Assembly: GCA_022361155.1 (NCBI GenBank)
Contig: JAKSBK010000095.1
Span: forward strand, 27,462-91,461
Length of the DNA stretch: 64,000 nucleotides
Source: Pseudomonadota bacterium
GTDB lineage: Bacteria > Myxococcota_A > Polyangia > Polyangiales > JAKSBK01
Reading direction: 5' to 3'
In this document: positions 28,215 through 64,000 of the stretch, piece by piece
How the letters are laid out: every line of letters starts with the position of its first letter
Numbering within the stretch: the first letter of the stretch is position 1
Program-made: the position numbers and the translations under genes
Notes under the pieces: model-generated
Database searches by the model: none
Told to the model about the DNA's origin: nothing
Seen by the model: only the letters and a program-made list of their open reading frames with translations

Positions 28215-29537
28215 CTACATGCGGAGCGGAGGATCCGAGCGCACACCGAGCAGGAGCTCGCGTGCCACGGCTACCATGAAAATGGAGCCGGCAACCACGA
28301 GCAGGCCGCGCTCTCCCGCGTCCCCTTGCGCTCGCTCCAGGCCTGCCCTGGGATCGGGGCAGCACGTACCGGGCACGACTTGGTGCAGTGTCTCCGGTGG
28401 GGCGGCACGAGGCAGCGGTGGGGCCGCGTACACGACGCTGTCCACGTGGGGGCGCAGGCTATGGAGCATGCCCGCGTAATCCTTGTCCGCCATCGTGCCA
28501 AAGAGCAGCGCCACCTTGCGGCCGTTCCGGTGGGCGGTGACGAAACTGGCTAGCGCCCGGCAGCCATCGAGGTTGTGCGCTGCATCCAGCAGGCAGGCCG
28601 GCTTTCCGGGCAGCCACTCGTTGCGACCCGGCCAGCGGGTGCGCTCGAGGCCTTGTCGGATGGCGGCCTCTGCAACGGGAAAGCCGATCCGCTCGAGCTG
28701 CAGCGCCGCCACGACCGCGCAGCTCGCATTGTGAACCTGGTGAGTTCCCTCGAGCCCGCAACGCAGCCCCTGCAGCCGCTGCTCGCCCAGCGCCAGGTCG
28801 AACGAGCCGCTCGCTTGCCATGGACGGGGCTCGAAGTCACGGCCGGCGCACAACGTCGGCACACCCAGCTCCCGGGCGCGGCCGGCGATCACGCTGAGCG
28901 CGCTCGGCTCACGCACGCCCACGATCGCAGGAACCGCGCACTTGAGAATGCCCGCCTTCTCGCGCGCGATGCTCGCCAGATCCGTGCCCAGGATGCGGCC
29001 GTGATCGTGACCGATATGCGTGATGACCGATAACACCGACGGCGCTGCATTCGTCGCATCGAGGCGCCCGCCCAGACCGACCTCGAGTATGGCGATGTCG
29101 CAGCGCCGGTCACGGAAGTGCTGGAACGCCATCAGGGTGGTGAGCTCGAAAAAGGTCAGGCGTGGCGCACCCGGCTGCGCGAGCGCCCGACTGAGGGCCT
29201 GGTGGCGCCCAGCCACTTCGCGCTGCGTGATCGCGCGCCCGTTCACACGTATCCGCTCCACGAAGCGATGCAAGTGCGGCGAGGTGTACAGGCCTGTACG
29301 GTATCCCGCAGCCTGCAGCGTTTCGGCGAGCATGACCGAAACGCTTCCCTTGCCGTTGGTTCCAGCCACGTGCACGAAGGGCGTGGCGAGCTCGGGCGAG
29401 TCGAGCAGGGCGAGCGCCTCGTGCATGCGCTCGAGGTCGAGTTTGACGCCGCGGGCCTGAAGTGCGTAAAGACCCCTGAGGGCTTCGCGGTAGCTCGCAC
29501 GCACAGTCCTTGGGTACGGCGAAGGCAGCGGCTGCAT
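28215..29537 (-). CDS. folC: bifunctional folylpolyglutamate synthase / dihydrofolate synthase
   Basis: HVAGTNGKGSVS P-loop, Mur-ligase middle and C-terminal domains. Start taken at ATG 29537, just after the accD stop. Confidence 0.9.
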   Translation of the reverse strand: MQPLPSPYPRTVRASYREALRGLYALQARGVKLDLERMHEALALLDSPELATPFVHVAGTNGKGSVSVMLAETLQAAGYRTGLYTSPHLHRFVERIRVNGRAITQREVAGRHQALSRALAQPGAPRLTFFELTTLMAFQHFRDRRCDIAILEVGLGGRLDATNAAPSVLSVITHIGHDHGRILGTDLASIAREKAGILKCAVPAIVGVREPSALSVIAGRARELGVPTLCAGRDFEPRPWQASGSFDLALGEQRLQGLRCGLEGTHQVHNASCAVVAALQLERIGFPVAEAAIRQGLERTRWPGRNEWLPGKPACLLDAAHNLDGCRALASFVTAHRNGRKVALLFGTMADKDYAGMLHSLRPHVDSVVYAAPPLPRAAPPETLHQVVPGTCCPDPRAGLERAQGDAGERGLLVVAGSIFMVAVARELLLGVRSDPPLRM

Positions 29538-55661: not shown

Positions 55662-57740
55662 CTACTCAGGTATCAAGTCTCGTCCCGCAGGGCAAGCGAT
55701 CTCAACACCCGTCTCTCCCATGTCGGTACGCAGTATCTTGAACTCCACGCGCCGGTTCTTCTCCCAAGCCGCGGGATCGTGGCCGGCATCTACAGGACAG
55801 CGCTCGCCGTAACCCGCGCTTCGCAAACGATCGGGCATGATCCTGCGTGACAGCAGGGCGTCCACCACCGATGCCGCACGGGCCCGCGTCAGCTTGATGT
55901 TGTACGCATCGCTCGCGCGCTCGTCCGCGTGGCCCTGAACCTCCACCAGGCGCAGCTGCGGGTTGCCTTGCAGCGTTGCCGCTACCGCATCGAGGATGGG
56001 GAAGCTGCGTGGCAAGATTTCGGCGCTGTTCGTGGCGAAGTAGATCTTGTCGAGAACGACGATTTGATCCTCCTCTACGATGACCGAGCCCTCATCCGGG
56101 CAGCCGTCCTCATCCGCGGTCCCGTTGTAGGTTTCGGGATCGTTGGGACACTCGTCGTCGCGATCCAGAATCCGATCTTGGTCGTTATCCAGATCGGGAC
56201 AACCGTTGTCGTCCTCGAACTGGTCGATGTCCTCCGGATCCTCCGGGCACATGTCGTCGGAGTCCAGAATCCCATCCTTGTCGTTGTCCGGATCGGGGCA
56301 GCCGTTTTCGTCCTCGAAGCCGTCTCGATCCTCCGGGTCATCAGGACACTCGTCCGCGTTATCGAGAATTCCGTCGCCGTCACGATCCCCGAGCGACTCC
56401 TCCGGGCAGCCGTCGTGGTCTGCGTCGCCGTCGTGGTCCTCGGGGATCAGTGGGCACTCGTCGTCCACATCGAGGAGCCCGTCTCGGTCGTTGTCCGGAT
56501 CGGGGCAACCCTCGGCGTCCTCGAAACCGTCGAAATCTTCCGGCTCATCCGGACACTGGTCGACGTCATCCTTGTAGCCATCGCCGTCCCGGTCGCCGAT
56601 CGAAGGCTCGAACACGAAACCCAGCACCGCCCGAAGCTCCGCGGTATTGACGCCCTGCTGGACCTCGGCCCCCCCGGCCAGGGTCAAGTAGCTGTTGCGC
56701 TCCACGAAGACCTTTATCCCTCCAAGCGCCTCGACTCCGAGGCCCCCGCGCTGCCCGAACGCACCCATGACCTGGGCGCCGTAGGCTTCCCCAACAAGCT
56801 CGAGCGGTCCACCGATGCGCAGGCTCGTGGCCAAGCCGAACGTGATCAGGTCGTCGTACCGAATCTCGTCGCCTCCCATGGGCAGGGACGGACAGGTGGC
56901 GTTGGTGACCACACCGGTCGCGGGCTGCGCCTGGCAGTATGGTGGTGGCGGCGAAACGGGCGGCACCAGCGCAAGAGGATCCGAGCGGGCATTCAACCGG
57001 ACCGTGGCGCCTGGCGACGCGTTGAAACGGTAGCCCGCGTTCAGGCCAACCCGAAACCGAGACACGGGCATCCACTCGACGGCCAGGCTTGGCCAGACCG
57101 AGATCCCCGGCTCCCCGCTGAACGCCGCCGTATTGCCGGTTGGCAGCCCCAGCTGCAGCGTCAATGCGACGCCCAGCGGATCGTATTCGGCCCGCAACAG
57201 ACGTGCCTTGGCGTGCAACACCAGATCGCCAATGCCCTGAGCGTTGAGACCCGAAGGAAGCGCGACGTCGTTGTACAGGTTCGGGATCACGGTCTTCGGA
57301 CCGCTGAGCACCTGAATCGGAAGCTGGCCGCCCAGCACGAAGCGATTGAGCAAACCGTAGTTGAAGCTGAGCGTTCCGGTGAACGCTCGCGCGACCAGGT
57401 GCTTGTTACGCTCGAGCATCTCAGGCGAGGACGCCAAACCTCCCCCGATAGAGACGTCCGGATTGTACGTGAAGCCCTGATACGGAAGGATGTCCGAGCC
57501 GAGGTCCAGAATGAGACCGAAGCTGTAGTCCTTGTGGCCAAGCACGTCGGTGCCGTTGAGCGCGAGGTAGCCCTTGGAGTCGATGGGCTGTCTGAACAGG
57601 CGCACGTCAAGACCCCCACCGCTCGTCAGCTCGGCGGTCTGAGCGACGGCATCCACGCTGGGCGTCAGGGCAAGTGCAAGGACACACCCAATACGGCCAA
57701 TCCAGGAGTGCGGTACCCACCCACTCAGGTGGTGCAGCAT
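55662..57740 (-). CDS. OmpA-family outer membrane protein with thrombospondin type 3 (calcium-binding) repeats
   Basis: Signal peptide and an N-terminal beta-barrel-like region. Seven or more D.D.DG..D..D.CP repeats. The C-terminal OmpA domain has IYFATNSAEI...GHADERASDAYNIKLTRARA. Confidence 0.92.
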   Translation of the reverse strand: MLHHLSGWVPHSWIGRIGCVLALALTPSVDAVAQTAELTSGGGLDVRLFRQPIDSKGYLALNGTDVLGHKDYSFGLILDLGSDILPYQGFTYNPDVSIGGGLASSPEMLERNKHLVARAFTGTLSFNYGLLNRFVLGGQLPIQVLSGPKTVIPNLYNDVALPSGLNAQGIGDLVLHAKARLLRAEYDPLGVALTLQLGLPTGNTAAFSGEPGISVWPSLAVEWMPVSRFRVGLNAGYRFNASPGATVRLNARSDPLALVPPVSPPPPYCQAQPATGVVTNATCPSLPMGGDEIRYDDLITFGLATSLRIGGPLELVGEAYGAQVMGAFGQRGGLGVEALGGIKVFVERNSYLTLAGGAEVQQGVNTAELRAVLGFVFEPSIGDRDGDGYKDDVDQCPDEPEDFDGFEDAEGCPDPDNDRDGLLDVDDECPLIPEDHDGDADHDGCPEESLGDRDGDGILDNADECPDDPEDRDGFEDENGCPDPDNDKDGILDSDDMCPEDPEDIDQFEDDNGCPDLDNDQDRILDRDDECPNDPETYNGTADEDGCPDEGSVIVEEDQIVVLDKIYFATNSAEILPRSFPILDAVAATLQGNPQLRLVEVQGHADERASDAYNIKLTRARAASVVDALLSRRIMPDRLRSAGYGERCPVDAGHDPAAWEKNRRVEFKILRTDMGETGVEIACPAGRDLIPE

Positions 57741-61663: not shown

Positions 61664-61799
61664 GACCCCGTTCCAGAGCTCGCTCCAGTCGCCCGGCTTG
61701 CGGCGTGGAACCGGGCAGTACCGGCGGGGTCGCCGACGCAAGCGCCGACACATCGGCTGCAGGCGACGCCAACGTGCCGGTATCACACAAGTTACGGAG

Positions 61800-61881
61800 T
61801 GCCGGGGGCGGGACTCGAACCCGCACACCACTGGGGTCGGCGATTTTAAGTCGCCTGCGTCTGCCATTCCGCCACCCCGGC
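61800..61881 (-). tRNA. tRNA-Leu (anticodon UAA), class II
   Basis: The minus strand reads GCCGGGG TG GCGGAATGGCAGACGCA GGCGA CTTAAAA TCGCC GACCCCAGTGGTGT GCGGG TTCGAGT CCCGC CCCCGGC A. Confidence 0.9.
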
Positions 61882-61892
61882 GTTTCCAGGGA

Positions 61893-62306
61893 TCACAACG
61901 TCCTCGGTGCCGGCGAATCCGAAGGGCGCCGGCCGGGACCAGGCACCTCGGGCTCGATGCCGCATGGACGATTCTGTCTATCGACACGCACGACGCGGGG
62001 TTGGTGGCGCCTTGCCTCTTCCTCGGTTAGCTCGCCAAAAACCGCCAGAATCACCATGTCACCCGGTCGGTTGTGGTGCGCCGCAGCCCCGTTTACGCAC
62101 ACCACGCCGGACTGTCGCGGGCCGGGCAGCAGGTAGGTGGCGAGACGTGAGCCGCGTGTGATGTTCCACACGTGGACCTCCTCGTGGGCAAGCATACCGG
62201 CCGCGTCCATGAGGTCGGCATCCACGGTCAGGCTCCCCTCGTAGTCGAGATCCGCGTGCGTGATGACGGCCCGATGAATCTTGCCCAAGAACATGCGACG
62301 ACGCAT
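61893..62306 (-). CDS. panD: aspartate 1-decarboxylase
   Basis: [29 protein letters not shown], including the self-processing G-S site, and [13 protein letters not shown]. Confidence 0.95.
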
Positions 62307-62323
62307 CTGTACCCTAATGGATT

Positions 62324-62414
62324 GTGCCCTGCGATGGTGCCCTGCGATGGTGCCCTGCGATTGTACCCTGCGATGGTGCCCTGCGCTTGCAGCCCGCGAT
62401 CGTAGCCTGCGATG
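62324..62414. repeat. 13-bp tandem repeat, 7 head-to-tail copies (consensus GTGCCCTGCGATG)
   Basis: Units start at 62324, 62337, 62350, 62363, 62376, 62389 and 62402. The first two are identical and later ones diverge progressively. A degenerate unit lies at 62309-62321. The panD ATG is at 62306. Confidence 0.9.
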
Positions 62415-62567
62415 ATCGCCGTGAAGACAGCCCCCTTGAGCCCCTCCCGAGAGAGCCCTGCGCCCGGTGTAGCGTCGCCGCCTGAGGGTCGCAAGGGCGC
62501 GTCCTCGGCCGTTGAAGGCATGCGTCTAATTGCGAGCGCAGCCTGAATCGTGGTAGCGCGTGCCGTT

Positions 62568-64000
62568 GTGACCACCAGCTATCCACGCCCATCGTCCCGC
62601 ACCATCGCCTGGCAGGGCGGCATTCTGCTGCTTGTGTTGTTGATGTTCTCGCTTCCAGCGTTGGCGCACTTTTACATCGACTACCAGTGGTTTCGTTCGG
62701 TCGGGCACGAGGATGTCTTCGTCACGCTGCTATCGACGAAGGCCTGGTTGGGCGCGGGGGTGGGACTGGTGACGCTGGCCTTGCTCCTGGCCAACCTACA
62801 GTTCGCTCTGCGTGCCTCGGCTGGACTGACCTCGGCCAAGCTCACCGATCCCGATGGCATCCCGCGAGTCGATCTGGGGCAGGCGGCCAAGCGGCTCGTG
62901 CTGCCCATGAGCATCGCCATCGGGCTGGTGTCGATGCTCAGCAACCTGGCGAAATGGGACCTGTGGCTGAAGTTCTCCCACGCGATGGAGTTCGGAACCG
63001 CGGACCCCATCTTCGACCGAGACGTGGGCTTCTACCTATTCCGACTCCCGCTGCTCGAGACGCTGACGGGGCTGTTCCTGTGGACCGTGGGCTTCATCGC
63101 GCTGACGTCCGGCGCCGTCTACTTGATGCGGGGCGCCATTGCGAGCTCGGTCGGGCAAATCAGCGTTCATCCCAGAGCCCGTCATCATCTCGCTGTGCTC
63201 GCGGGGCTTTTCTTCCTCGGTCTGGCCTGTGACACCTACTTGGACGCATACGGTCTGCTCTACTCGGAGCTCGGGCCCATGACCGGTGCGAGCTACGCGG
63301 ACGTGAACGCGCGCCTGCCGGCGCTGAGAGTAAAGGCTGCCGTCGCGTTGCTGGCCGGGGGCGTCCTCGTGTACGCCATCCTGCAGACGCGCCCGGCCTA
63401 CTTTGCGGCGGCTTTTGCGGGCTACATCGCCACACACGTATTGGGCGTGGGCCTCTACCCCTATCTCGTGCACCGCTTCAATGTCGTTCCCAACGAATTC
63501 GAGAAGGAGAGCCCGTACCTTCAACACAACATCACGGCCACTCGCGCCGCCTATGGTCTCGAAAACGTCCTCGAGCGTGAGCTCAGTGGCGAGATCGCGC
63601 TGACCCGGCAGGACATCGAGCGAAACGAGCCCACGGTGGCCAATATCCGGCTATGGGATCATCAGCCGCTGCTGGACACGTTCGCTCAGATCCAAGAGAT
63701 CCGCACCTATTACGAGTTCGCGTCGGTGGACAACGATCGCTACGAAATCGAGGGCCGGCTGCGGCAGACCATGCTCTCGCCACGCGAGCTGTCGACTCAG
63801 AGCCTTCCCAACCGCACATGGATCAACGAGCGCTTTACCTTCACACACGGCTACGGCCTCACACTCGGTCCAGTCAACGAGGCAACGAACGAAGGGCTGC
63901 CGGTCCTGATGATCAAGGACATCCCACCTGGTGCAACGCAAGCATCGGTGACAGTGACGCGTCCATCCATCTATTACGGCGAACTGTCCAACGACCACGT
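62568..64000 (+). CDS. UPF0182-family large membrane protein (5' part; continues beyond the window)
   Basis: Not in the ORF track because it is open-ended. GTG 62568 (or 62550) start. Reads IAWQGGILLLVLLMFSLPALAHFYIDYQWFRSVGHEDVF, multiple TM helices, then RLWDHQPLLDTFAQIQEIRTYYEFASVDNDRY, which is characteristic of UPF0182. Confidence 0.85.
   Translation, partial: MTTSYPRPSSRTIAWQGGILLLVLLMFSLPALAHFYIDYQWFRSVGHEDVFVTLLSTKAWLGAGVGLVTLALLLANLQFALRASAGLTSAKLTDPDGIPRVDLGQAAKRLVLPMSIAIGLVSMLSNLAKWDLWLKFSHAMEFGTADPIFDRDVGFYLFRLPLLETLTGLFLWTVGFIALTSGAVYLMRGAIASSVGQISVHPRARHHLAVLAGLFFLGLACDTYLDAYGLLYSELGPMTGASYADVNARLPALRVKAAVALLAGGVLVYAILQTRPAYFAAAFAGYIATHVLGVGLYPYLVHRFNVVPNEFEKESPYLQHNITATRAAYGLENVLERELSGEIALTRQDIERNEPTVANIRLWDHQPLLDTFAQIQEIRTYYEFASVDNDRYEIEGRLRQTMLSPRELSTQSLPNRTWINERFTFTHGYGLTLGPVNEATNEGLPVLMIKDIPPGATQASVTVTRPSIYYGELSNDH

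Follow-up and report, generated by a model that had tools for sequence, protein, structure and literature searches.

The panD gene in the 64,000-nt stretch of bacterial DNA analysed here (referred to as the window, whose source is a metagenome-assembled genome from short reads) is preceded by a run of short head-to-tail repeats that reaches its start codon. This raises the question of whether the repeats are a regulatory element of panD, of the divergently oriented UPF0182 family gene on their other side, or a product of local amplification with little effect on either gene.

A 13-nt tandem array adjoins the panD start codon

The genes and repeats concerned are the following.

61799–61881, reverse strand: tRNA-Leu(UAA), just downstream of panD
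61893–62306, reverse strand: panD (aspartate 1-decarboxylase), 137 aa, Pfam Asp_decarbox, 4e-44
62307–62413, reverse strand (the panD sense strand): the whole array, seven 13-nt units and one degenerate 16-nt unit, ending at the panD ATG
62323–62413, reverse strand: the seven 13-nt units, head-to-tail
62307–62322, reverse strand: the degenerate 16-nt proximal unit ATCCATTAGGGTACAG, which abuts the panD ATG and holds a weak SD-like AGGG
62568–64000, forward strand: 5' part of the UPF0182 family gene (8e-132), with its start GTG at 62568, running off the window

The head-to-tail 13-bp repeat described upstream of panD in the original prediction is real, as Tandem Repeats Finder, matching of the 13-mer and a repeat search agree. 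Tandem Repeats Finder reported period 13 at 62320–62385 (5.1 copies, 90% matches, score 111) and at 62327–62414 (6.8 copies, 80% matches), as well as a period-39 higher-order row (score 132), and the repeat search gave seven in-register copies at a spacing of 13 nt. The 13-mer GTGCCCTGCGATG is exact at 62324 and 62337, has one mismatch at 62350 and 62363 and two at 62376 and 62402, and the unit at 62389 differs from it at five positions by manual count from the sequence. The degenerate copy, CTGTACCCTAATGGAT on the forward strand (62307–62322), adjoins the CAT of the panD start codon (62304–62306). On the panD sense strand the array unit is ATCGCAGGGCACC, and the successive units read, from distal to proximal, ATCGCAGGCTACG, ATCGCGGGCTGCA, AGCGCAGGGCACC, ATCGCAGGGTACA, ATCGCAGGGCACC, ATCGCAGGGCACC and ATCGCAGGGCACA, followed by ATCCATTAGGGTACAG-ATG. 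The sense-strand reading given previously (CATCGCAGGGCAC, with a proximal UAGGGUACAG-AUG) was right on both counts; that the array fills most of the divergent spacer was an overstatement, as it takes up 107 of the 261 bp between panD and UPF0182 (41%).

Each unit holds CAGGG. Degeneracy is greatest in the three distal units, the middle units are identical or nearly so, and only about three units are perfect. With a period of 13, about eight units and a location between panD and UPF0182, the array is a minisatellite in the usual sense of non-coding, head-to-tail units of at least about 10 bp.

The repeat unit outside the array

Elsewhere in the 64-kb window the 13-mer occurs at chance level (47 matches with up to three mismatches, compared to 41.8 expected). 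On the forward strand at 62589–62614, within the 5' coding region of UPF0182, 20 of 26 nt (77%) are complementary to two array units; one of 155 control blocks taken from the window had a match at least as good, and we regard this inverted match as probably due to chance.

A wider scan for three ATCGCRGG cores at period 13, covering one genome per species in 185,579 species, found 72 arrays (L004–L075) in many phyla, among them Actinomycetota, Alphaproteobacteria, Gemmatimonadota and Planctomycetota. These arrays have unrelated 5-nt spacers, assorted intergenic positions and orientations, and no common neighbour gene; the longest one seen, with at least 12 units, is located where a Kuenenia contig ends (L046). 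In the DNA examined, period-13 arrays number, by a rough estimate, between one and a few per Mb, a density at which tens to hundreds of chance matches would be expected for each 8-mer core. A widespread 13-nt repeat family was at first suggested by 72 arrays against a naive expectation of about 0.03; the units and their contexts gave no sign of one, and the count is compatible with chance by this rough period-13 background.

Most related panD genes are preceded by a hairpin, and none by the array

The array is absent upstream of panD in all 83 related loci examined (66–77% PanD identity). Among non-identical PanD proteins the best identity to that of the window is only 77%, some of the related proteins are labelled Myxococcota or Sandaracinaceae, and the N-terminal start of PanD is conserved among them. 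The pairing of panD with tRNA-Leu is also present in loci L076, L081 and L003.

In 71 of the 83 loci, panD is directly preceded by a conserved hairpin in which two A residues are bulged and which overlaps a GGAGG ribosome-binding site (for example, L097 1457–1495 and L076 1949–1991), and a covariance model of this hairpin scores 24–54 bits at these loci. The hairpin consists of a 3-bp outer stem, a 5-bp middle stem, a bulged A in the 5' arm, an inner stem of at least 3 bp and a bulged A in the 3' arm, with compensatory changes at 6 of its 12 pairs (e.g., A-U to G-C in 12 of 31 sequences). In most relatives a promoter-like block is followed, about 10 nt on, by CUGAGCGUACCC-loop-GGGACGCUACGGAGG and, a few nt further, by the ATG.

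In its architecture this hairpin matches the published pan RNA motif, a stem broken by two conserved bulged A residues and found upstream of panB, panC or panD (PMC2864571), which according to its authors is typically single in delta-proteobacteria (PMC2864571). In an unfiltered search of 121 nt, a model of the published hairpin matched that of one relative over its full length at 16.3 bits, both bulged A residues being in register; the match is lost under default filters. A search of the relatives' loci with Rfam returned tRNAs only, its pan model not detecting the hairpin.

In the window spacer, the best scores were 4.4 bits with the model of the relatives' hairpin and 3.9 bits with that of the published one, and Rfam returned only tRNAs from the panD region, with no match to the array or spacer at E up to 10. 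The window lineage has neither an intact pan-type hairpin nor the adjacent GGAGG site. Two hairpin-model matches elsewhere in the window, at 28612 and 29154, were dismissed, both being inside a 456-aa ORF. A by-product of this comparison, more useful than the array itself, is that most relatives presumably control panD via a single hairpin of the pan-motif type overlapping the SD, which is missed by the Rfam model and has been dispensed with in the window lineage.

Five relatives whose PanD starts with MKRRMF (L111, L119, L128, L131 and L150) have a different conserved leader about 70 nt upstream of panD, in which a long hairpin (CCTTTCCTCGAA...TTCGAGGAAAG) replaces the pan-type hairpin.

The array is most likely located in the panD 5'UTR

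The relatives' promoter-like block (TTGCGR-N17-TAAGTT/TAGATT) is located about 45 nt upstream of the hairpin. A promoter PWM built from the blocks of 40 relatives, all with 17-nt spacing, was applied to the spacer, in which we distinguish the following additional features.

62414–62459, reverse strand: non-repeated part of the inferred panD 5'UTR, containing CGGGAGGGG
62466–62494, reverse strand: panD promoter-like TTGCGA-N17-TACACC, a PWM match with its −35 at 62494–62489 and its −10 at 62471–62466
62530–62559, forward strand: predicted UPF0182-facing promoter-like TTGCGA-N18-TAGCGC, score 6.3, ending 8 nt before the GTG

With the relatives' PWM the panD promoter-like block scores 7.5, a value attained by 5.9% of randomly drawn 261-nt segments of the window; the next best site in the spacer is at −0.6. 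A scan of the region with the sigma-70 consensus found no promoter at its threshold. With the panD promoter-like block upstream of it, the array most likely belongs to a transcribed panD 5'UTR of about 153 nt. Together with the block facing UPF0182, we infer two promoters placed back to back within 62466–62559, and since the array is on the panD-transcribed side of the inferred promoter block, it probably does not serve UPF0182. Alternatively, the window sequence GCGACCC...GACGCTAC could be a degenerate hairpin instead of a promoter block, in which case the array would still be downstream of it, in the leader. The segment CGGGAGGGG is possibly a remnant of the 3' end of the ancestral hairpin and its SD, scoring 3.9 bits only.

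The UPF0182-facing block has a TG just upstream of its −10, and the UPF0182 mRNA would be leaderless or nearly so. In the relatives, the N17 spacer of the panD block almost always has a short GC-rich inverted repeat in varying register (CCCCGG..CCGGGG, CCCCAG..CTGGGG), which may be an operator, an RNA stem or mere base composition.

Leaders with one and with eight units upstream of the same panD

The exact PanD protein of the window was found on three other contigs. Two of them (L001 and L002), from independent assemblies of other samples, are 99.8–99.9% identical to the window, from which they differ by 2–4 SNPs over 3–5 kb, and contain an identical array, so that three assemblies agree in copy number and in unit variants. 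The third (L003) is a contig of 580 bp that shows no difference from the window in panD and tRNA-Leu (487 aligned nt). The 71 nt upstream have diverged, with a single unit at their end (...CATCGCAGGGTGTAG-ATG). At identical panD, copy number is one in L003 and eight in the window, and it is the same among the three near-identical assemblies; L003 is the sole variant contig found, and a short one. A search with the UPF0182 protein gained no further strain alleles of the array, since its closest match is only 54% identical.

The 5' junction of L003 (GATC|ATCGCAGG) is kept in the distal unit of the window, and the 3' junction (GGGTRYAG|ATG) is common to L003 and the proximal unit of the window. 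First and last units that keep the junctions of the single-unit leader are as expected if a single ancestral unit had been duplicated internally in tandem. The leaders, L003 1–71 and window 62307–62480, are about 75% identical, compared to 100% for panD, and the break falls at the start codon and the array. As simple slippage does not explain so abrupt a drop, the break suggests either recombination in or close to the array or an assembly that followed a mixed path.

The array as RNA and the panD translation start

The array RNA in the sense orientation folds no better than its shuffles (z = −0.15), folding of both strands gave no significant structure, and the array RNA contains no ATG, GTG or TTG start codon. 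Its composition is G 34, C 33, A 27 and U 13. The predicted unpaired probability of positions −15 to +12 is 0.30–0.36 across 0 to 7 units, and the number of units leaves the predicted accessibility of the ribosome site unchanged. The proximal AGGG would pair with the anti-SD at −4.0 kcal/mol, which is weak and typical for genes of the window, most of which are without strong SD sequences.

The first 15 nt of panD itself (AUGCGUCGUCGCAUG, 62292–62306, reverse strand) are self-complementary (AUGCG/CGCAU), and could enclose the start codon in a small hairpin of 5 bp. In relatives the MRRRM is spelled with different codons, and the palindrome is absent.

Origin of the array

The explanation that we favour, with moderate confidence, is that the array is a lineage-specific minisatellite, amplified in situ within a transcribed and remodelled leader, with a small effect on panD and without a role as a conserved operator. 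A segment of about 13 nt with a weak ribosome-binding site, located just upstream of the panD start, would have been amplified in tandem by replication slippage or unequal exchange. This would have taken place in the transcribed leader of panD, beyond a promoter block that the relatives have as well, in a lineage that appears to have lost the pan-type hairpin used by those relatives beside the GGAGG ribosome-binding site. The amplification would have added about 91 nt of unstructured, start-codon-free RNA in which a weak SD-like CAGGG is repeated. The effect on panD would be small: either neutral, or a mild tuning of translation via leader length or extra low-affinity landing sites for the 30S subunit.

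Some of the observations stand against this explanation. The array is identical in the three assemblies despite their SNPs, so no instability is visible, and the divergence of the distal units indicates that the array has been kept for some time. Moreover, it abuts the start codon at the place where the ancestral hairpin was lost, and a replacement function would fit this position as well. A functional reading stays alive, at a low probability, because of the identical array in three strains, the old, diverged distal units and the place of the lost regulatory element.

The functional alternative would be an iterated RNA element, in which repeated weak SD or standby sites, or sites for an RNA regulator, took over after the loss of the pan-type hairpin. 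Consistent with this, the array is located in the putative 5'UTR and abuts the ATG, each of its units contains CAGGG, its RNA has neither predicted structure nor start codons, the window lineage lacks the ancestral hairpin, and the array is conserved among three near-identical strains. However, it is absent from 83 of 83 relatives, with the closest variant having a single unit; the units have no GGA or (G/U)AG spacing as in CsrA or TRAP sites; and the SD-like pairing is weak and ordinary for the genome, with a predicted accessibility independent of unit number. We consider this element unlikely. Its more specific form, in which about eight CAGGG units act as a platform for the 30S subunit or an unknown RNA-binding regulator, setting panD translation after hairpin loss with unit number as the means of tuning, appears improbable to us. 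The original proposal of iterated protein- or RNA-binding sites is unsupported, given 83 related panD loci without the array, no Rfam match and no predicted structure. A decoy-SD leader, also proposed originally, would have to act in a genome in which most genes have no strong SD, and at a start site with the same predicted accessibility at any unit number.

Frequent gain and loss of units could also make the array a phase-variable contingency tract that switches panD expression. Contigs with identical panD do have one or eight units, and gene-proximal repeats of M. tuberculosis vary in copy number and have been proposed to alter expression (PMC12817950). In the panD array, however, copy number and unit variants are the same in three independent assemblies, only about three units are perfect, and the array is located neither between the inferred −35 and −10 (62494–62466) nor in a reading frame. 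Further, panD is a housekeeping gene, and the L003 leader differs by many substitutions rather than by unit number alone. Phase variation is thus doubtful to a high degree. The original suggestion of a slippage-prone tract that changes leader length, alone among the three roles proposed, has some support, from the one-unit and eight-unit leaders with their junctions kept; the array shared by three assemblies and the few perfect units speak against a fast-switching tract.

Seven to eight direct repeats within a divergent spacer might otherwise be iteron-like DNA sites for a regulator of both the panD and the UPF0182 promoters, to which the weak inverted match of two units (20 of 26 nt) in the UPF0182 5' coding region could be added. 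The array is outside and downstream of the inferred promoter block (62466–62559), though, and is not conserved in relatives, including L076, which has the same UPF0182-panD arrangement. The DNA helix makes one turn per about 10.5 bp, and a period of 13 bp does not hold one helix face. Such a role is very unlikely.

A long-loop G-quadruplex formed by GGG every 13 nt, or a Rho-utilisation site, would make use of the seven sense-strand GGG runs, 10 nt apart, in an unstructured leader segment of about 107 nt. The G4Hunter peak in 25-nt windows is 0.64, compared to a usual threshold of about 1.2 or more, and the nearly equal C and G counts of the array show no rut-type skew of C over G, which makes modulation of panD by either means highly improbable. 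An assembly artefact in the copy number, conceivable for a genome assembled from short metagenomic reads, is hardly credible given that three assemblies, which differ in sample and assembler, have the identical array and that most of it is, owing to its unit variants, unique over the length of a read.

Comparison with known repeat and leader elements

The closest known kind of element is the gene-proximal VNTR or minisatellite of bacteria, such as the promoter tandem repeats of M. tuberculosis (VNTR3690 upstream of lpdA and QUB15 upstream of cysG; PMC12817950). Both these VNTRs and the panD array consist of imperfect head-to-tail repeats a few to tens of bp from a start codon in a GC-rich genome, with unit numbers that differ between close lineages and, for the panD array presumably, an origin by slippage or recombination. 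Unlike the M. tuberculosis repeats, the panD array has units of 13 bp instead of 54–58 bp, contains no whole promoter, is inferred to lie in a 5'UTR and has no copy-number variation among three assemblies.

The pan RNA motif (Weinberg et al., 2010, PMC2864571; Rfam pan family) shares with the array its position in the leader of aspartate decarboxylase, beside the ribosome-binding site, and its presumed role. The array has no stem or bulged A, and occupies the place of the missing motif instead of being a version of it.

Repeated short motifs in leaders are also known as protein-binding sites: TRAP binds eleven (G/U)AG triplets, 2–3 nt apart, in the trp leader, and CsrA binds GGA sites that overlap the SD. 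The panD array resembles these in repeating a short purine motif along an unstructured leader up to the ribosome-binding site. It differs from them in its period (13 nt instead of 5–6), its core (CAGGG instead of GAG/UAG or GGA), its lack of conservation across species and its having no known partner protein. The contingency loci of Neisseria and Haemophilus consist of perfect 1–7-nt repeats, between promoter elements or in ORFs, with high-frequency switching. As in those loci, the repeat tract is near a gene start and its length could set expression; the array has neither their perfect short repeats nor their placement, nor has high-frequency switching been seen.

As a minisatellite born, in our reading, from the ribosome-binding-site segment of a housekeeping gene, and caught as one-unit and eight-unit alleles, the array is a documented example of how quickly bacterial leaders get remodelled. 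If it does tune translation, such alleles would be a natural series for the effects of leader length and repeated weak SD sequences on initiation.

Two other tandem repeats are present in the window, at 1271–1440 (27 bp, 6.3 copies, also seen as 81 bp in two copies) and at 56146–56354 (99 bp, 2.1 copies). As the periods of both are multiples of 3, they are probably coding repeats.
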